From NCBI GenBank assembly GCA_022360575.1, contig JAKSCO010000069.1:4702-68701 (forward strand): a stretch of 64,000 nt of DNA, given 5' to 3'. How positions within the stretch are numbered: the stretch's first letter is position 1; each line of letters begins with the position of its first letter. The notes beneath the pieces were generated by a model. It was not told the origin of the DNA. It worked only from the letters and a program-made list of their open reading frames with translations, and searched no databases. Origin of the DNA: Bacteroidales bacterium (GTDB taxonomy: Bacteria > Bacteroidota > Bacteroidia > Bacteroidales > UBA12077). Shown here one piece after another: positions 19,131 through 58,267 of the stretch. Position numbers and translations under genes: made by a program.

Positions 19131-19284
19131 TAATACCAATTATGCCGCAAAATGATTGATAAAAGCATTATTATATAATACAAATCAAATTGAAATTTAA
19201 TGATATTACTTGACCTTCCAAACATCAATAATGGGGTTAACACCCCCATTGATGATGTTCTAACCCCGATTAATTGTATAAATA

Positions 19285-19730
19285 ATATCGAATAGCATCT
19301 ACTAAACATATGTGATATATATTTCTTACATCAAACATACTGTTTTTTACATCTATCAAGACTTAAATGACATCGATTAATATCTTTTTTTGGTCGATAG
19401 CCTCGATAAAAACATCGATAATATACCTTTTTTACATCCTTCGAGGCCAAAAGAACATCCTTCGAGATCATTTTTACATCAATCATGACCTTTTCTACAT
19501 CGACAGAGATGTTTTTTACATCAATATTTTGATCAATTTTACCCCAACTTTGATGTAAATTAGATCGAGAAAGATGTATTTTACCCCAACTTTGATGTCT
19601 TTTAGGTGTTTTTTCTTTCAAAATTTTGAGGTGAATCGATGTTTTTGAGGTCTCGGAGGATGTAATTACCGAGCCAAATAATGTTTTTTAGATCATTCTC
19701 GATCTTAACTACATCATTTTTGATGTAGTT
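19285..19730. repeat. two opposed arrays of a 21-bp-phased pentamer (ACATC then GATGT)
   Basis: ACATC starts at 19328, 19349, 19370, 19412, 19434, 19455, 19476, 19497 and 19518. GATGT starts at 19552, 19573, 19594, 19638, 19659 and 19722, with near-matches at 19680 and 19701. The 20-mer TTTTACCCCAACTTTGATGT occurs at both 19537 and 19579. Confidence 0.85.
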
Positions 19731-19890
19731 AACCCCAAACTTGGGGTTCGAGATATTGTTGTTGGTGTTACGGATAAAAAGAATATCTATAAAATAAATA
19801 AGTATTAGCCAAACTGAATAAATTTGGCTATTCTTAATAAAGCTATAGTATTCTTACTAAAGAAATATTTTGTAATTCTGTCAACTATCA

Positions 19891-20042
19891 CAATTTCAAA
19901 ATGGGGATTTATAAAACTGAATAATTTTTGTCTTAGACACGATAAAAAAGTAAAAGATAGCCTAATTACCTTGCAGCTTTTTGATAATGGCTAAAGTAAA
20001 AAGAAACGTTTTTATTATTCTTATTGATGTTCTTTGGGTATA
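19891..20042 (+). repeat. dispersed MITE-like repeat, copy B (left end diverged)
   Basis: GGGGATTTATAAAACTGAATAATTTTTGTCTTAGACACGATAAAAAAGTAAAAGATAGCCTAATTACCTTGCAG...GATGTTCTTTGGGTAT aligns along its length with copy C. Confidence 0.75.
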
Positions 20043-20256
20043 ACTGCTCATTTCTAATGTTAGGTCTAATTAAAATTAATGCTATTAGAATTGAATATCT
20101 GATCTTTGTATTTTAATTTTTTAAAGAGATACAAAGCCCATTCGATTTTTTTAACGTTTACTGCTTGTGTGCAAATACTCCCCTGAAAGTTAAGCTATAC
20201 TTGAAGATAAGCGTTTTTTTAGTGTATAAATAATCATATTGTTATAAAAATAATGT

Positions 20257-22185: not shown

Positions 22186-22983
22186 TTAAGATAAGTAAAA
22201 ATTACGTTGTCGCATAGCTTCGAAAACTAAAATTGCTGTTGATGTAGAAACATTTAATGAGTCAATTTCCCCGCTCATAGGAATTATTATCTGATTATCT
22301 GTGTTTTTTAGCCAGTTGTCACTAAGCCCGGTGGCTTCTGTTCCCATAACAATAGCTGTTGGTTTGGTAAAATCTTTTGTATGATAATAATCTTTAGCTG
22401 TAAGAGCTGCTGCATATGATTTTATCTTCTTTTCTTTCAACCATTTTATTGTTCCATCAGATGAGGCAGTGACAATTTGTGTGGTGAAAACACATCCGAT
22501 ACTTGATCGGATAACATTAGGATTATAAATATCTGTTAAAGGGTCAGAAATGATCACAGCATCAACATTAGCTGCATCTGCTGTTCTTAAAATTGCACCT
22601 AAATTCCCTGGTTTTTCGACTGATTCTAGAACTATGATTAAAGGATTCTCGCGTAATTTTAGATTTTCCAGAGTTGAATGTTTGACTTCGGCAAGGGCTA
22701 AAATACCTTCAGTTGAGTTACGATAAGCCAGTTTATCATATACATCGGAAGTGACCTCAAAAATAATGTCGGAATTAAATTTACCCTCGATAGTGCTTAA
22801 ATCTATTATTTCGGGGCAAATAAAAATTGATTTTATATTAATTTTTCCATTTAAAGCTAATGTTATTTCTCGCAATCCTTCGATTACTATAAGATTCTGT
22901 TTCCGTCTTTCAGAAGATTTCTGTTGTAATTTTAGTATGTTTTTTATTTTAGGATTATTTATGCTTGTAATTTTATCAATCAT
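22186..22983 (-). CDS. SpoU/TrmH-family RNA 2'-O-methyltransferase
   Basis: Contains ESVEKPGNLGAILRTADAANVDAVI, the IVMGTEATGLS motif, and IPMSGEIDSLNVSTSTAI in the knot region. Confidence 0.8.
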   Translation of the reverse strand: MIDKITSINNPKIKNILKLQQKSSERRKQNLIVIEGLREITLALNGKINIKSIFICPEIIDLSTIEGKFNSDIIFEVTSDVYDKLAYRNSTEGILALAEVKHSTLENLKLRENPLIIVLESVEKPGNLGAILRTADAANVDAVIISDPLTDIYNPNVIRSSIGCVFTTQIVTASSDGTIKWLKEKKIKSYAAALTAKDYYHTKDFTKPTAIVMGTEATGLSDNWLKNTDNQIIIPMSGEIDSLNVSTSTAILVFEAMRQRNFYLS

Positions 22984-22991
22984 ATTCAGAA

Positions 22992-24524
22992 TTAACTTTT
23001 TCGTTTAATTTTAATATATTGCCCAGCTCTTAATGATCTAGCACTACTCATATTATTAAGTTTCAGAATATCATTTTCGGTAATCCCATGATATTTTCTG
23101 GCAATTTCCCATAATGTATCTCCTCTTCGTACTTTGTAATAAACGTAATTTTTATCGCGCTTTTTATTTATAGGCTCGCTAGGTCGAGCAGTTGATTTGC
23201 CTACTCTTTTTTGTTTCTCCTCAAAAGACATTTTATTGATCCCGGCATAATGTTTTGATTTTCCTTTAGGAACATATATGTATAATTTCTGACCTGTACG
23301 GATCATATTTCTTCTGATATTATTCCAATATCTAATATCAGAAGCTCTTACATTATACCAACTAGAAATAAACCCAATATTATCTCCAGATTTTACAGTA
23401 TATATTAATTTATCTTTATTGGTAGGAGCTTGAGGAGTATAATATGATTTCTTAGGATTCCGTATGGAGTTATCGGCATTAAAATACAACGATTTTTTAT
23501 AATTAACGATTGAATCTTTTTGGTCTATAAAATTTCCAATGTAATCTAAAGGCAAAGTTATTGATAAGAAATTAGACTTTGCCGGGATTATGTTCTGTTT
23601 GTATTGAGGATTTAGGTCTCGCAATGCTTTCATCGGAATATTTAGCACTTCAGAAATTTGTTTGAAATGTATATTACTCGATATAGAAATAGTATCGGTA
23701 GCTATTGATAGTTCTGGATAGATCGGTTTTATATTATGTTCTTTATAAAAATTGAAAGTATAGCTTGCTGCAATATATGCAGGGACATATCCTCTTGTTT
23801 CGCGAGGGAGATAATAATATAATTCCCAAAAATCTCTTTTCCCTCCTGTTCGACGAATAGCTTTATTTACATTTCCCGGGCCACAATTATATGCAGCAAT
23901 AACCAAAGTCCAATCTTTAAACATAGAGTATAAATCTTTCATAAATAGAGCTGCTGCATGTGCTGATTTTACAGGATCGCGTCGGTCGTCGATATATGAA
24001 TTAATGGTTAAATCATACATTCGAGCTGTACCATACATGAACTGCCACATACCTGTAGCTCCAACCCTAGAAACCGCTCGAGGGTTTAATGCAGATTCGA
24101 TTACAGCCATATATTTTAATTCGGTAGGGATTCCGTAGTTTTCGAATATCTCTTCTATTTTAGGAAAGTAGTATTCAGATAAACCAATCATTGTTCCTAC
24201 GTTTTCTCTACGTTGTTTTGTATAAACATGAATATAGTTGCGAACAATTTTATTATAGGGTAAACTTATGATAGATGGAATACTTTGTAATCGATTAATA
24301 TAAATGGAGTCGCTAAATTCAGGAACTTCATTTGTATCTACAAGTTCGGTATAATTGTGTTTTATTGATTTATTAATGTGCCAATGTTTTATTAGGTCAT
24401 CAAGGTTGTTCTCGAAATTAGAATAACGAATTACATTAATAGTATCGTTAGGAGTGTGAGCTAAAGCTTTATTAATAGAAAATAAGAAGCATATTATAAT
24501 TACAGTAATTACTTTTTTATTCAT
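22992..24524 (-). CDS. MltD-like lytic transglycosylase with two LysM domains
   Basis: Signal peptide, an SLT core (AVIESALNPRAVSRVGATGMWQFMYGTA...AAYNCGPGNV), and two LysM repeats (YTVKSGDNIGFISSWY; YKVRRGDTLWEIARKY). Confidence 0.8.
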   Translation of the reverse strand: MNKKVITVIIICFLFSINKALAHTPNDTINVIRYSNFENNLDDLIKHWHINKSIKHNYTELVDTNEVPEFSDSIYINRLQSIPSIISLPYNKIVRNYIHVYTKQRRENVGTMIGLSEYYFPKIEEIFENYGIPTELKYMAVIESALNPRAVSRVGATGMWQFMYGTARMYDLTINSYIDDRRDPVKSAHAAALFMKDLYSMFKDWTLVIAAYNCGPGNVNKAIRRTGGKRDFWELYYYLPRETRGYVPAYIAASYTFNFYKEHNIKPIYPELSIATDTISISSNIHFKQISEVLNIPMKALRDLNPQYKQNIIPAKSNFLSITLPLDYIGNFIDQKDSIVNYKKSLYFNADNSIRNPKKSYYTPQAPTNKDKLIYTVKSGDNIGFISSWYNVRASDIRYWNNIRRNMIRTGQKLYIYVPKGKSKHYAGINKMSFEEKQKRVGKSTARPSEPINKKRDKNYVYYKVRRGDTLWEIARKYHGITENDILKLNNMSSARSLRAGQYIKIKRKS

Positions 24525-24600
24525 AACGATTTTGTATTGCTAAGTTTAATTATAAAACTATTAATAAAGTTCTTTGTTCGAACAATTAATATAAAATGAT

Positions 24601-25173
24601 TTAAAAAGAAAAACAACAACTAAGTCCAATTGTATTCTGATTACAGAATGTCTTGTTTATAGCTGGATTAATATGCAACGATAAATCTTCGTTAATATTA
24701 TAATCAAATAGATGAGCATCGACCGCAGCATCAACTATATTAAGTATATAAACTGCTGCTAAAACAATTATATTTAAATCCCGATTTCGTTGATACCGAT
24801 CTTTTAATCTAAGCAAAGTTGCTTTGTCGGTATATCCTTCAAATTCGGTAATTTGCCCATTATTAAATTGAGTGTAGGCTGTTCGAAATTTATTGTATTG
24901 AGTATTATTAAAATCAAATAAATAAATAATAAATCCTGTTGTTCCGTAAATAATTGGAAGTTTCCAGTATTTTTTATTGTATATCTGTCCTAATCCAGGA
25001 ACTAAAGCAGAATATAGAGCTGCTTTGTGTGCCGAGTGTATATTTACTATTGTATCTGTTTGTAAACTATTATCGGGAATGGTTTTGTTTTGACCTTTCC
25101 CGATTGTTAGGATACCCATAAATACAATTACAAGTAAATATTTTATAAACGTATTCGGTTTATTCTCTCCCAA
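24601..25173 (-). CDS. DUF5683-like membrane protein
   Basis: SALVPGLGQIYNKKYWKLPIIY plus a second hydrophobic helix. Its position just downstream of parB is typical in Bacteroidota. The start is TTG. Confidence 0.5.
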   Translation of the reverse strand: MGENKPNTFIKYLLVIVFMGILTIGKGQNKTIPDNSLQTDTIVNIHSAHKAALYSALVPGLGQIYNKKYWKLPIIYGTTGFIIYLFDFNNTQYNKFRTAYTQFNNGQITEFEGYTDKATLLRLKDRYQRNRDLNIIVLAAVYILNIVDAAVDAHLFDYNINEDLSLHINPAINKTFCNQNTIGLSCCFSF

Positions 25174-25201
25174 AATGATTCGTTTTTTGTTTGGAACAAA
25201 A

Positions 25202-26068
25202 TTATTTCATTTTATCAATAATTCCCATTATTCGTTCTAAATCTTCGTCGGATTTAAAAGGAATAACTATTTTACCGCTACCTTTATTGTTACGTTTAAA
25301 ATCAATTTTAGAGCTAAAATGTTCTGCTAAATGTTTCTGTAGTTGTTCGTATTCTTCAGGTAATCTAACTTTTGTTTTGGGATTATTTTTTTTAGGAGTA
25401 TTAATATCTCTTATAATATCTTCGGTTTTACGAACAGATAAACCTTCGTCGATAATTTGATAATAAATTTTTAACTGAGTAACTTCATTTTCAATGTTAA
25501 CTAAAGCACGGGCATGTCCCATTGAAATCTGCTTATCTCTTATTCCTAATTGTATTTCGGCAGGAAGTTTTAATAGGCGAAGGTAATTCGAAACAGTAGA
25601 TCGTTTTTTCCCTACGCGCTCACTCATACTTTCTTGAGTAAGTTTACACTCTTCAATTAATCTTTGGTAACTAATAGCAACTTCGATGGCATCTAAATCT
25701 TCGCGTTGAATATTTTCAACTAAAGCCATTTCGAGCATTCCTTGATCATCTGCAAAGCGAATGTATGCCGGGATTTTTTTAAGACCTGCTATTTGAGATG
25801 CTCTAAGTCTGCGTTCTCCTGATATTAGTTGAAATTTACCATTATCGAGAGTTCTTACAGTAATAGGCTGTATTATACCGAGCTCTTTTATCGATTTTGA
25901 TAGTTCTTCGAGAGAGTCTTCATTAAAAATGGTTCGAGGCTGAAATGGATTAGCTTCTATTTTATAGATATCTATTTCGTTAACCGCATCAGCAGTTACA
26001 ATTTTTTCCTGCCCTGCTTCATCAATTAATGCTCCGAGTCCTCTACCTAATGCGTTTCGTTTTGCCAT
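25202..26068 (-). CDS. parB: chromosome partitioning protein ParB/Spo0J
   Basis: Contains GLGRGLGALI, NPFQPR, the GIIQPITVR and ISGERRLRA boxes, and the HTH segment QESMSERVGKKRSTVSNYLRLLKLP. Confidence 0.9.
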   Translation of the reverse strand: MAKRNALGRGLGALIDEAGQEKIVTADAVNEIDIYKIEANPFQPRTIFNEDSLEELSKSIKELGIIQPITVRTLDNGKFQLISGERRLRASQIAGLKKIPAYIRFADDQGMLEMALVENIQREDLDAIEVAISYQRLIEECKLTQESMSERVGKKRSTVSNYLRLLKLPAEIQLGIRDKQISMGHARALVNIENEVTQLKIYYQIIDEGLSVRKTEDIIRDINTPKKNNPKTKVRLPEEYEQLQKHLAEHFSSKIDFKRNNKGSGKIVIPFKSDEDLERIMGIIDKMK

Positions 26069-26085
26069 TTCACATTTATATTAAA

Positions 26086-26886
26086 TTATTCTACAACTTT
26101 TTCTGCGTTTGCTATTTTGGTGTTATCGTTTTTTTGCAATAATTCTTTTGCTAAATTTAAATAGTTGATAGCTCCTTTTGATGCAGCATCATATAATACT
26201 ACAGGTTTCCCATAACTAGGAGATTCGCTTAATTTTATATTTCGCTGTATTATTGTTTCAAAAACCATATTTTGAAAGTGTTTCTTAACCTCGTCAACCA
26301 CTTGATTCGAAAGTCTTAATCTTGGATCGTACATGGTTAATAAGAAACCTTCAATTTCTAATTCTTTATTTAATCTTGATTGTATAATCTTAATTGTATT
26401 TAAAAGTTTTCCTAAACCTTCTAGTGCAAAATATTCGCACTGAACAGGAATTATAACAGAGTCGGCAGCAGTTAGTGCATTTACTGTAATTAAACCTAAG
26501 GATGGAGAGCAATCAATTAAGATATAGTCGTAATCGTCGCGTATACCTTCGATAATTTGCTTAAGCACATATTCGCGATTAGGTTGATTTAGCATCTCTA
26601 TTTCGGCTCCAACAAGATCTATGTGAGAAGGTATTATGTCGAGTTTTTCGATATCGCTATTTAGAATGATATTTTTGGGATCTTGTTCGTCGACCAAACA
26701 TTCGTAAATACTTGTTTTTACGGCTCGAATATCAAACCCCGTTCCTGATGTAGCATTTGCCTGAGGATCGGCATCAATGATTAATACTTTTTTTTCAAGA
26801 ACAGCTAAACTTGCTGCCAAATTAATTGAAGTGGTTGTTTTTCCTACCCCTCCTTTTTGATTAGCTAATGCAATTACCTTTGCCAT
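26086..26886 (-). CDS. parA: ParA/Soj partition ATPase
   Basis: Deviant Walker A motif NQKGGVGKTTT, DADPQANATSG, and DYILIDCSPSLG. Confidence 0.9.
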   Translation of the reverse strand: MAKVIALANQKGGVGKTTTSINLAASLAVLEKKVLIIDADPQANATSGTGFDIRAVKTSIYECLVDEQDPKNIILNSDIEKLDIIPSHIDLVGAEIEMLNQPNREYVLKQIIEGIRDDYDYILIDCSPSLGLITVNALTAADSVIIPVQCEYFALEGLGKLLNTIKIIQSRLNKELEIEGFLLTMYDPRLRLSNQVVDEVKKHFQNMVFETIIQRNIKLSESPSYGKPVVLYDAASKGAINYLNLAKELLQKNDNTKIANAEKVVE

Positions 26887-32156: not shown

Positions 32157-32318
32157 ATACCAAATAGGTTTCAAGATGAAGGATTTATAAAAATGAATAA
32201 TTTTTGTCTTAGACGCGACGAAAAAGTAAAAGATAGCCGAGTTACCTTGCAACTTTTTTGGCAATGGCTAAGGTAAAAAGAAACGTTTTTATCACTCATT
32301 TTGATGTTCTTTGGGTAT
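32157..32318 (+). repeat. dispersed MITE-like repeat, copy C (longest)
   Basis: ATACCAAATAGGTTTCAAGATGAAGGATTTATAAAAATGAATAATTTTTGTCTTAG...CACTCATTTTGATGTTCTTTGGGTAT. It carries a 17-bp internal segment absent from copy A. Confidence 0.8.
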
Positions 32319-45857: not shown

Positions 45858-46008
45858 ATGGGCAAACAAGCGTGTCTACTTTTAATCTTCTCTAGCTCGG
45901 CGAAAAATAAGCAAGTAAATATATATTAAAAAGAACGCTCGGCGGCATTTGTAATGCCGACGTTTTATTGTCAGGCAATTTGCCATTGCTTTGCAAAAAC
46001 AAAAAACA

Positions 46009-46279
46009 ATAGCAGGAAGCTAACTCTATGCGCAGGGAGCATTTTTTAATGCCAAATCCATTAAATTCAATAGCAGGGAACCTCTACAACATTGCAGGGA
46101 GCCTTTATAGTACTCCAGGAAACTCCCACAGCATTGCAGGGAGCAGAGAATGTTATGCAAATTAGGGTCACAGTATAGCAGGGAGTCATAACACAACGTT
46201 AAAGAAACGTTTTTTCACGTCAGGGAATCAAAACTTAATAGCAGGGAGCCAATTTCATGAGCAGGGAGCATTTTTTAAC
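46009..46279. repeat. 21-bp-phased array of the 9-mer GCAGGGAGC (about 13 unit positions, 10 recognisable)
   Basis: CAGG cores at 46013, 46033, 46074, 46095, 46116, 46137, 46179, 46221, 46242 and 46262, giving spacings of 20, 41, 21, 21, 21, 42, 42, 21 and 20. Five copies match GCAGGGAGC exactly. Confidence 0.85.
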
Positions 46280-47504: not shown

Positions 47505-47930
47505 ATATATTAATGTGTAAAGTACGAAACAAAATTAACAGAGTTAATCTTAAAATAATAGATTTTTAACAATTTTAATATTTAAATGGAATATGAGTTC
47601 CAAAATATGGTAGGTATAGTTAAAAATATTTTCTTGGTTAGTATCTATTAGAAATGATAAAAGAATTATTTTCAGAAATACGCGACACAGAAAAATAATC
47701 TAATAAATTACGAGTAATTATATGTATATTCTATTTGTTGATTCTCGCTGTAGAGTCCTACAAGCGCTGAGAATAGAATAATATTTTACTATGTATGGCA
47801 AATTTTTACAATATTTTTCACTTTTTTCGTAAGTTTTCCTCTTACAACTCTTGTTTTTTAAAGATTTTTTATACTTTTAGGCATCAATTAATGAAAATTT
47901 CTTGATACCCTAACCCTAAAATTTAAACCC

Positions 47931-57502: not shown

Positions 57503-57716
57503 TAAATTAATTTTTTGTAACTATTATTTGTTATTGAAACACCTATTTTGCTAAATTATTATTTAACAAGTAAACTAATTAAATAAAGAATTTATAAAAC
57601 TAGTAAATATTACTTTTTAGAAAAGAAATAAATTAAAATATTTTAGATTACTTCCTTTTATAAACTCAGTTCTATCTTTCTGTTTTTTATAAGTAAATTA
57701 TTGGTATAAAAGAATT

Positions 57717-57775
57717 ATACCAAAAGAACATCAAAATGAGTGATAAAAATGTTTCATCTTGAAATTCATTTGGCA
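57717..57775 (-). repeat. internally deleted copy D of the dispersed repeat (the two termini joined)
   Basis: The reverse complement reads CCAAATGAATTTCAAGATGAAACATTTTTATCACTCATTTTGATGTTCTTTTGGTAT, i.e. left end plus right end without the ~90-bp core. Confidence 0.7.
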
Positions 57776-58267
57776 CTAATCGAAAGCCTTGATTTTAGTA
57801 TCCCCGTACGATTTGACCCTTCCCTGAAGCATTTGAGCAGTCAATGCTTAATTTTTATAGTCCTCTAAGCATAATTTTGTTATCAATTGTAACTTTTTTG
57901 CAAATAATGCTTTAATCCTTTAAAATAATCAAAAAAATGAGTGTCCCCTGAATAAAATCATTCAAATAATTAAAGATTTGACCCTCCCATTGAAAAAATA
58001 TCTCAAATAATTGAAGATTTGGGCTGTTTCCGAAACGAAATGAGTCGTTTAATTAAGAAAATTTGTTGTCCATTGAGAGAATATAGCTTTCAATTGAACC
58101 AATGAAGCTTTCACTAGAACAGATATTATTATTCGTGGGGCTTTTTAGCTATTCATAAAGGCAAAATAGTATAATTTGGTACTGGAAACAGTTCGAGATT
58201 GTATTGTAACTTTAAAGTTTCTGAAAGCTAATTTTTTTCTGGAGTTAAGCGGTTGTTTTAATTATAA

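Follow-up and report, generated by a model that had tools for sequence, protein, structure and literature searches.

A 64,000-nucleotide stretch of ordinary chromosomal DNA from an uncultured Bacteroidales bacterium (assembly GCA_022360575.1, contig JAKSCO010000069.1; hereafter the window) carries, at positions 19285–19728, an intergenic array of ACATC pentamers that recur every 21 bp and change orientation halfway. The array is real, periodic, constrained in its core, predicted to be curved, non-coding, and lineage-specific, and no hallmark of an origin, centromere, or transposon was found in the window. Our favored reading, to which we assign a probability of about one in three, is that it forms a young, lineage-specific set of ~17–19 helically phased sites for a putative sequence-specific DNA-binding protein; protein binding, the identity of the binder, and the role of the complex are what we infer. 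The features concerned are as follows.

19285–19536, + strand: left half-array, supported by Tandem Repeats Finder, pentamer counts, autocorrelation, and unit alignment
19537–19728, − strand: right half-array, the unit type of the left half in reversed orientation
19508–19552, no strand: switch region, with GATGT-T5-ACATC (19508–19522), TTGATCAA (19529–19536), and then the first right-hand unit
19221–19259, no strand: palindrome at the left boundary, AACATCAATAATGGGGTTAACACCCCCATTGATGATGTT, in which ACATC and GATGT enclose a GGGG/CCCC hairpin
19705–19747, no strand: right boundary palindromes TTAACTACATCATTTTTGATGTAGTTAA and AACCCCAAACTTGGGGTT, inverted repeat I23 (12 nt, 100% complementary)
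19331–19621, − strand: 96-codon open reading frame (ORF) with a TTG start, not a gene but an orphan read-out of the repeat in which the motif changes frame

Register and core of the array

In the left half, exact ACATC pentamers start at 19328, 19349, 19370, 19412, 19434, 19455, 19476, 19497, and 19518 (n = 9), with a degenerate in-phase unit at 19391 (TGGTC) and weak units at 19285 and 19306; the unit consensus there is W-tract + T + ACATC + n + A + T. Exact GATGT pentamers of the right half start at 19552, 19573, 19594, 19638, 19659, and 19722 (n = 6), joined by one-mismatch copies (AATGT at 19680 and GATCT at 19701) and by a degenerate unit at ~19616. Palindromes are present at 19709–19728 and 19730–19747. 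Apart from those of the two degenerate units, these array and palindrome coordinates, like those of a duplicated 20-mer described below, had been given in an earlier sequence-only reading of this DNA, and each one that was checked proved correct. With all units oriented by their pentamer, the consensus becomes (C/T)(C/G)-T-W-W-W-W-T-ACATC-n-A-T, followed by a less marked preference for G at +11 and for S-T at +14/+15. The likeness between the halves reaches beyond the pentamer alone, as the longer unit types ACATCCTYCGAGRYC, ACATCGAT, and ACATCAAW were found in both orientations. The left half also has a 42-bp super-period, in which units with a T-tract and units with an A-tract alternate. The A/T tract is constantly 5′ of ACATC, and its T-rich strand remains the + strand despite the inversion of the pentamer; the right half is therefore not a simple inverted copy of the left. 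Two tetramers are enriched within the array, TCGA (12 observed, 2.4 expected) and GATC (5 observed, 1.0 expected). Dyad axes recur every 10.5 bp (19548.5 to 19601), the best of them 44% complementary, and a single fold-back axis for the array was rejected on account of this recurrence.

The window holds on average 0.55 ACATC per 500 bp, and the two bins that contain the array hold 9 ACATC and 7 GATGT. Tandem Repeats Finder returned a period of 21 in each half, with matches of just 58–62%. Autocorrelation, by which the sequence-only reading had proposed to confirm the period, gave maxima at lags 21 and 42 with z = 5.8–6.6 against 300 dinucleotide shuffles, the top lag-21 signal of the 64 kb. 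That reading had also named comparable phasing in shuffled sequence as a possible refutation; when the whole window was simulated 200 times with a block-wise Markov model, pentamer chains at 21 (±1) bp reached a maximum of 3–5, against the 9 observed. Perfect ACATC occupied 15 of the 21 in-phase positions examined and a copy with one mismatch another 4, and the register was maintained over ~440 bp, across skipped units (steps of 42 and 44 bp). Chance is excluded as the source of this register.

Conservation is concentrated in the pentamer. Information content, computed on all 19 in-phase units with no motif selection, was 1.1–2.0 bits within the pentamer and ≤0.9 bits at the other 16 positions; the core is therefore constrained and the spacers randomized, a pattern that neutral decay of a tandem repeat would not produce. 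This agrees with the earlier proposal that the pentamer is constrained at the level of DNA, as does its change of frame within the 96-codon ORF. The translation of that ORF is a read-out of the repeat, with DV five times and then, past the single 22-bp step, RC three times, exactly where the frame shift had been placed. Among 5.8 billion proteins it had no homologue besides itself, and Pfam has no family recorded for the gene call. The array is non-coding, as the sequence-only reading held, and the ORF (NCBI tag MI739_02580) should not carry a protein annotation.

Of all 126-bp segments in the window, 19512–19637 has the strongest predicted curvature, its ratio of end-to-end to contour length being 0.50 (window mean 0.93, standard deviation 0.046), and every sampled 126-bp window across the array fell in the lowest 1.6% of this ratio. 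These values come from a wedge-model path calculation and depend on its wedge parameters. A parameter-free check, Fourier analysis of A/T-tract centers, agrees with them, giving an amplitude of 8.1 at period 21, the maximum of the window (mean 2.0, standard deviation 1.15). Sites and A/T tracts lie in helical register, as had been claimed, and the curvature predicted by the wedge model is strong. Two other segments of the window also stood out. The strongest 10.5-bp phasing of A/T tracts, and the second most curved predicted segment, is at 47780–47905 in the divergent region between kdtA and a 1144-aa ORF, which resembles a classical curved promoter region. The third most curved predicted segment, at 57800–57930 between the start of a TPR-protein gene and the end of the GroEL gene, is a weak third region of lag-21/41/42 signal with phased TTTG/T-tracts.

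Genomic setting and relatives

The array lies in a long gap between two gene 3′ ends, and the gap contains two further features.

19131–20256, no strand: the entire 1,126-bp intergenic segment, on which the ArsP-type permease gene and rrf2 converge
19806–19830, − strand: Rrf2-side terminator-like hairpin TAGCCAAATTTATTCAGTTTGGCTA with a T-rich tail, from a terminator call
19894–20041, + strand: copy of a dispersed ~150-bp intergenic repeat, inside the inserted segment but not part of the array

Leading up to the gap come, in this order, H+-PPase, Thx, ArsR, thioredoxin, DsbD-like, and ArsP permease; beyond it, on the opposite strand, follow Rrf2, thyA, folA, SpoU, SLT/LysM, DUF5683, ParB, ParA, PfkB, and PriA. 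Between the array and the end of rrf2 there are 530 bp, and the hairpin at 19806–19830 is probably the terminator of that gene. On the other side, the left boundary palindrome corresponds to inverted repeat I12 (16 nt, 88% complementary) and received a terminator-like call on the − strand.

Contigs of the same species (L081–L083) include the 1,126-bp segment at >99.8% identity. The array itself is identical in the window, L081, L082 (partial), and L083, and the only single-nucleotide differences in the gap, at 19192 and 19217, fall outside it; as it is unchanged in three independent same-species metagenome assemblies, the array is not an assembly artifact. No copy-number variation was seen among these contigs, a weak comparison given that all are >99.8% identical. 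More distant relatives differ. Seven contigs from four relatives, with Rrf2 86–88% identical, keep the thyA-Rrf2 / ArsP-DsbD-...-ArsR order, but their gap between Rrf2 and ArsP is only ~56 bp and holds one bidirectional terminator hairpin. Given this conserved gene order, the whole 1,126-bp gap is lineage-specific; the 56-bp gaps are not alignable, so that the edges of the insertion are approximate. No ACATC array was present in 80 ArsP-centered Bacteroidales loci. The protein cluster of the window's ArsP has no full-length member from the lineage at 94–97% identity (L084/L085), and hence yielded no copy of the array at intermediate distance; the contigs of that lineage (samples ERZ23488948 and ERZ27314244) end 138 bp inside the gap. 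The sequence-only reading had counted absence from close relatives against itself, and at genus or family distance absence is what we observed.

Two side observations concern the same region. Synteny with two of the relatives (L206/L210) ends just past folA (window 22186–26886), with SpoU-SLT/LysM-DUF5683-ParB-ParA here and ClpX-ClpP-trigger factor there. The dispersed repeat at 19894–20041 is 88% identical to 32169–32318 and 85% to 15462–15586, and its 3′ 41 nt also match 57715–57755 on the − strand; across copies that are 85–88% identical, the conserved 3′ part is GAAACGTTTTTATCACTCATTTTGATGTTCTTTGGGTATAAT. In three of the four places where it occurs, the repeat precedes a gene (for Thx, a DUF418 protein, or a TPR protein); it has no Rfam match, and contigs of the 94–97% identical strain break beside it. 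Probably it represents a mobile module that carries a promoter or a small RNA.

Signs of how the array may have grown are visible within it. The 20-mer TTTTACCCCAACTTTGATGT is present at both 19537 and 19579, 42 bp apart, and ACATCCTTCGAG at both 19434 and 19455, while direct-repeat family D3 joins 19527, 19569, and 19718, that is, two array units and the boundary hairpin GTTAACCCCAAACTTGGGGTT. The right boundary palindromes are likely the seed of the ACCCCAAC-containing array units. From the 20-mer copies and the tie between D3 and the boundary hairpin, the array was seemingly amplified from the terminator region rather than imported.

Such recent block duplications would also be expected of a functionless minisatellite, in which a 21/42-bp unit multiplied at the terminator hairpin through replication slippage or unequal exchange, the two orientations came from an inversion or from a palindromic seed, and the array is now drifting toward loss. 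Its absence from all syntenic relatives fits this account, as do the single copy, the lack of a cognate gene, and a second 21-bp array in the window (see below) that is also lineage-specific and is edged by an 18-bp direct repeat with the kdtA stop codon. Neutral decay should wear all 21 positions equally, however, whereas the pentamer is ~90% conserved and the spacers are near background. Slippage also has no reason to favor 21 bp, yet this is the sole period between 9 and 45 bp with chains of at least five in the window and is also the commonest in ~970 kb of other Bacteroidales DNA, and neither phased A/T tracts nor extreme predicted curvature would be expected from drift. We consider a minisatellite somewhat less likely than the favored reading, but a serious rival to it.

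A different account places the role of the array in RNA or transcription, with the opposed halves folding either transcript into a long imperfect hairpin. The array, taking the place of the single bidirectional hairpin of the relatives, would then terminate or insulate transcription in both directions, load Rho, or encode a structured non-coding RNA, and the flip in orientation would let polymerase from either convergent gene transcribe the ACAUC strand first. It lies exactly where the relatives have their terminator hairpin, terminator-like hairpins flank it at 19230–19250 and 19806–19830, and its two strands fold at −122/−126 kcal/mol against −80/−86 for shuffles (z = −7.5). This folding excess, however, arises from the opposed periodic repeat structure; there is no single dyad axis, and a 10.5-bp recurrence of axes is that of any opposed periodic array. 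The left half is richer in C than in G on the + strand (C/G 1.85), but on the − strand of the right half C does not outnumber G in this way (C/G 0.87 when read along the + strand), so that the symmetry expected of Rho sites fails. Rfam gave no gathering-score match in the window and, in the gap, noise only (E ≥ 0.2) and outside the array; no promoter was identified, and no homologues are available for covariation. For RNA, a period of 21 nt is not known to mean anything, whereas in DNA it amounts to exactly two turns. We regard an RNA-level role as rather unlikely, though still a serious alternative.

The favored reading, a phased protein-binding array, draws on the contrast between core and spacers, the sustained register, the phased A/T tracts with their predicted curvature, the longer units common to both halves, the lack of coding or known RNA, the geometry shared with LytTR-type operators, the recurrence of the 21-bp period with other cores, and the signs of growth in place. 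Each unit has a ~10-bp core (a 4–6-bp A/T tract, T, and ACATC) and a ~11-bp free spacer, so that all cores share one face of the helix, 9–10 units in one orientation and 8–9 in the other. The in-phase A/T tracts would bend the DNA, and a bound protein would cover one face and draw the segment, by wrapping or looping, into a symmetric nucleoprotein complex, as happens in iteron, centromere, and LytTR-type operator assemblies. Growth would have occurred in place, by 21- and 42-bp tandem duplication beside an ancestral terminator hairpin between the two convergent genes. The complex might act as a sink that titrates the protein or as a roadblock or insulator between the convergent transcription units. 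Several points weigh against all this. No gene for a candidate binding protein adjoins the array or occurs elsewhere in the 64 kb, and 5 invariant bp make a short core for specific binding. The LytTR, iteron, and centromere arrays known so far comprise 2–12 sites beside a cognate gene or promoter, whereas there are ~19 here between gene ends. The array was not found in any relative examined, which makes any function recent and dispensable, nor was a homologous array found in plasmid, phage, viral, or metagenome collections. Finally, the four same-species assemblies, being invariant in the array, are uninformative on selection, and the curvature values depend on the parameters of the wedge model.

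Origin, centromere, mobile-element, and Rrf2 readings

The sequence-only reading had drawn analogies to replication origins, centromeres, and transposon ends. These found no support, as the array sits in 1,126 bp of inserted DNA that the syntenic relatives lack. Pfam scans of non-overlapping ORFs of at least 100 aa across the window yielded chromosomal housekeeping genes only, and no Rep, ParR/ParM, TubR, transposase, or integrase gene was among them in the 64 kb.

An origin (oriC or the integrated origin of a plasmid or phage), a partition centromere, or a terminus fork trap would be typified by opposed iteron-like arrays, two-turn spacing, and bent DNA, and parA/parB and priA lie 5.5–9 kb from the array. 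The segment is missing, however, from relatives with conserved flanking genes. The window has 19 matches to the DnaA box TTATCCACA (≤1 mismatch), where 19.6 would be expected, and none of them falls in 19131–20256; the cumulative GC skew climbs steadily over 12–32 kb with no extremum at 19.5 kb. A chromosomal origin was rejected on these three grounds. No parS site (≤3 mismatches) is present in the window, no dif-like site lies near the array (the best dif-like matches are distant and weak), the window has no Rep, ParR, or TubR gene and likewise no parM, and only 5 of 21 bases are invariant, unlike in true iterons. The probability of any reading in this group is, in our judgment, close to nil. 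The earlier statement that no Par gene is adjacent holds for the immediate neighbors only, as ParA and ParB genes lie 5.5 kb away; this pair is of the chromosomal, parS-binding ParB-HTH (helix-turn-helix) type, and it has no parS site within the 64 kb.

The array might instead be a non-autonomous mobile element inserted between two genes, either a fold-back miniature inverted-repeat transposable element or multi-site ends of the Tn7 or Mu kind. The segment is an insertion relative to the relatives, the same gap also acquired the dispersed ~150-bp repeat, and the opposed sub-repeat arrays have a global inverted symmetry. Against this, no terminal inverted repeat (at 19131/20256, no long one) and no target-site duplication was recognized at the edges of the array or at the approximate edges of the insertion, no second copy was found in the 64-kb window, which also has no transposase, and the translation of the array matches only itself in the protein search above. 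The kinship of internal units with the local terminator hairpin suggests growth in situ.

Searches of plasmids, phages, viral contigs, and metagenomes, the last two with four different patterns, gave no match either. By blastn, the array had none among plasmids and phages. Three patterns run on viral contigs returned only coding tandem repeats, perfect phage iterons (which contain TTTACATC as the pattern requires it), or units with both words. In the JGI metagenome scan, the exact 20-mer had no match, and none of the 72 matches to the opposed-array pattern was a 21-bp opposed array. A mobile element is thus improbable. For annotation, the array should not be labeled as an origin, centromere, or gene, and it is unlikely to be a transposon end.

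The nearest look-alikes in the metagenomes were perfect hairpins of 7-bp ACATCnn repeats around TGATATCA, found at the following places.

L272, 1694–1760: look-alike hairpin
L274, 367–433: look-alike hairpin
L280, 1171–1251 and 3886–3952: look-alike hairpins
L287, 2899–2979, − strand: look-alike hairpin

They read (ACATCTT/ACATCGG) ×4–6, TGATATCA, and (GATGTAA/GATGTCC) ×3–5, sharing the pentamer of the array but with another period and architecture, and they lie directly past the stop codon of genes whose protein ends resemble those sorted by the type IX secretion system.

The sequence-only reading had put forward the neighboring Rrf2 and ArsR regulators as the first candidates for a binder. 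For ArsR, the arsR promoter does not contain the motif. Rrf2, possibly NsrR-like, would use the array as a half-site decoy that buffers free repressor. Its gene is near the array, the Rrf2 of the relatives lies near fer4-hcp-ygbA genes, and the Escherichia coli NsrR half-site, AAGATGyATTT, may be compared with AAGATGTATTT at array positions 19571–19581. Conserved blocks upstream of rrf2 and fer4/hcp in five relatives, however, have no ACATC/GATGT half-sites, Rrf2 dimers bind inverted repeats ~12 bp apart and not 21-bp direct repeats, and relatives whose Rrf2 is 86–88% identical have no such array. In addition, the conserved element upstream of fer4/hcp resembles an FNR/HcpR-type TGAT-N4-ATCA site, which suggests that hcp in this group may be under a CRP/FNR-type regulator and not the neighboring Rrf2. 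Taken this way, the Rrf2 decoy is highly improbable, and Rrf2 as a binder gains no support. The fer4-hcp region of the relatives was located as follows.

L206, 12670–12798: fer4-hcp region
L208, 9739–9875: fer4-hcp region
L210, 12615–12745: fer4-hcp region

A hairpin between fer4 and hcp there shows compensatory changes, AGATGT...ACATCT in L210 and AGGTGT...ACACCT in L206.

Other 21-bp arrays and known systems

Pentamer chains of at least five with periods of 9–45 bp occur in the window only at 21 bp, in two places. Scanning ~970 kb of other Bacteroidales loci over the same periods gave 5 arrays at 21 bp, the commonest period, against ≤2 at any other; 2 of the 5 are multiples of a 7-bp unit. 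The second array of the window and three arrays from other loci are listed below.

46007–46279, one orientation: second array of the window, core GCAGGGAGC, from the pentamer-chain scan
L056 (Marinifilum flexuosum), 476–840: core AAGAAATRG, ~17 units, non-coding
L021, 3645–3791: core CAGTT ×7, non-coding, upstream of arsR
L049, 3161–3300: core TCCCAAnAATGGAGT ×6–7, non-coding, just downstream of ArsP

In the second array, CAGGG starts at 46033, 46074, 46095, 46137, 46179, 46221, 46242, and 46262. Its spacers are variable, it contains no ORF of >56 aa, and it lies between the convergent genes for a PALP enzyme and KdtA. The 18-bp direct repeat at its edges, GCAGGGAGCATTTTTTAA, takes in the kdtA stop codon. 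It was not found in the KdtA relatives L246–L249, and the wedge model does not predict it to be curved.

Five arrays with five different cores and one two-turn period point to a shared geometric constraint rather than a shared sequence. A tentative extension, which we hold to be unlikely but worth stating, is that the ACATC array belongs to a new class of Bacteroidales intergenic arrays that act as one-face docking scaffolds, with 7–19 units, a strict 21-bp period, and a 5–10-bp core of their own. The proposal is based on these five independent arrays with distinct cores and on the lack of a comparable excess at other periods of 9–45 bp. Members of the class would form in place where genes end and have a rapid turnover, and they may serve as decoys, sinks, or barriers to transcription or supercoils for paralogous head-to-tail DNA binders such as LytTR-type regulators. 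No LytTR gene was found near these arrays, either in the window or beside the others. Nothing relevant was found in the literature on 21-bp repeats in Bacteroides/Bacteroidetes or on oriC in Bacteroidetes.

If the ACATC array does bind a protein, it would be a natural, large chromosomal array that arose de novo and works through helical phasing and curvature, and it would show the birth of a decoy, insulator, or scaffold from a terminator hairpin by tandem duplication. If it is only a minisatellite, one must still explain why its period is exactly two helical turns. The recurrence of a 21-bp period with unrelated cores in several Bacteroidales genomes suggests an undescribed general rule and not a one-off.

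Iteron arrays, such as those of R6K gamma-ori (22 bp), P1 oriR/incA (19 bp), and RK2 oriV, have a period of ~21–22 bp and bent DNA and may contain groups in opposite orientations, and some, as in incA, serve solely as an initiator sink or handcuffing site. True iterons are near-identical over 17–22 bp and have as neighbors a rep gene, an unwinding element rich in AT, and DnaA boxes, whereas the array has 5 invariant bp, no rep gene, and no DnaA boxes and is chromosomal, single-copy, and lineage-specific. Type II centromeres (R1 parC, with 2 × 5 repeats of 11 bp, and pSK41 parC, with 20-bp repeats) are coated on one face by an adaptor, giving a curved or super-helical complex. The array resembles them in its two blocks of short phased repeats, but they flank their own parMR promoter and the array has neither parM nor parR. 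With MIRU/VNTR, REP/BIME, and BOX elements it shares an intergenic position at gene 3′ ends, tandem units, and lineage-specific presence. Those elements are multi-copy with the whole unit conserved, whereas the array is single-copy, conserves only the core, and keeps a strict helical register. It also resembles phased A-tract curved DNA, having A/T tracts in helix phase and the highest predicted curvature of the window; classical curved elements, however, lie upstream of promoters, are phased at ~10.5 bp, and have no conserved non-A/T core (compare the segment at ~47.8 kb in the window).

Bacteroidota encode many LytTR regulators. The known LytTR operators (such as those of AgrA, YpdB, and ComE) consist of two repeats just upstream of a promoter, whereas the array has ~19 sites between gene ends. 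In sequence, operators of the LytTR type are built from 9–11-nt repeats, direct or inverse, at a spacing of 11–13 nt and with no common consensus (PMC4847170). The array unit, with its ~10-bp core and ~11-bp spacer, has this geometry, and the other 21-bp arrays, with their different cores, fit it as well.

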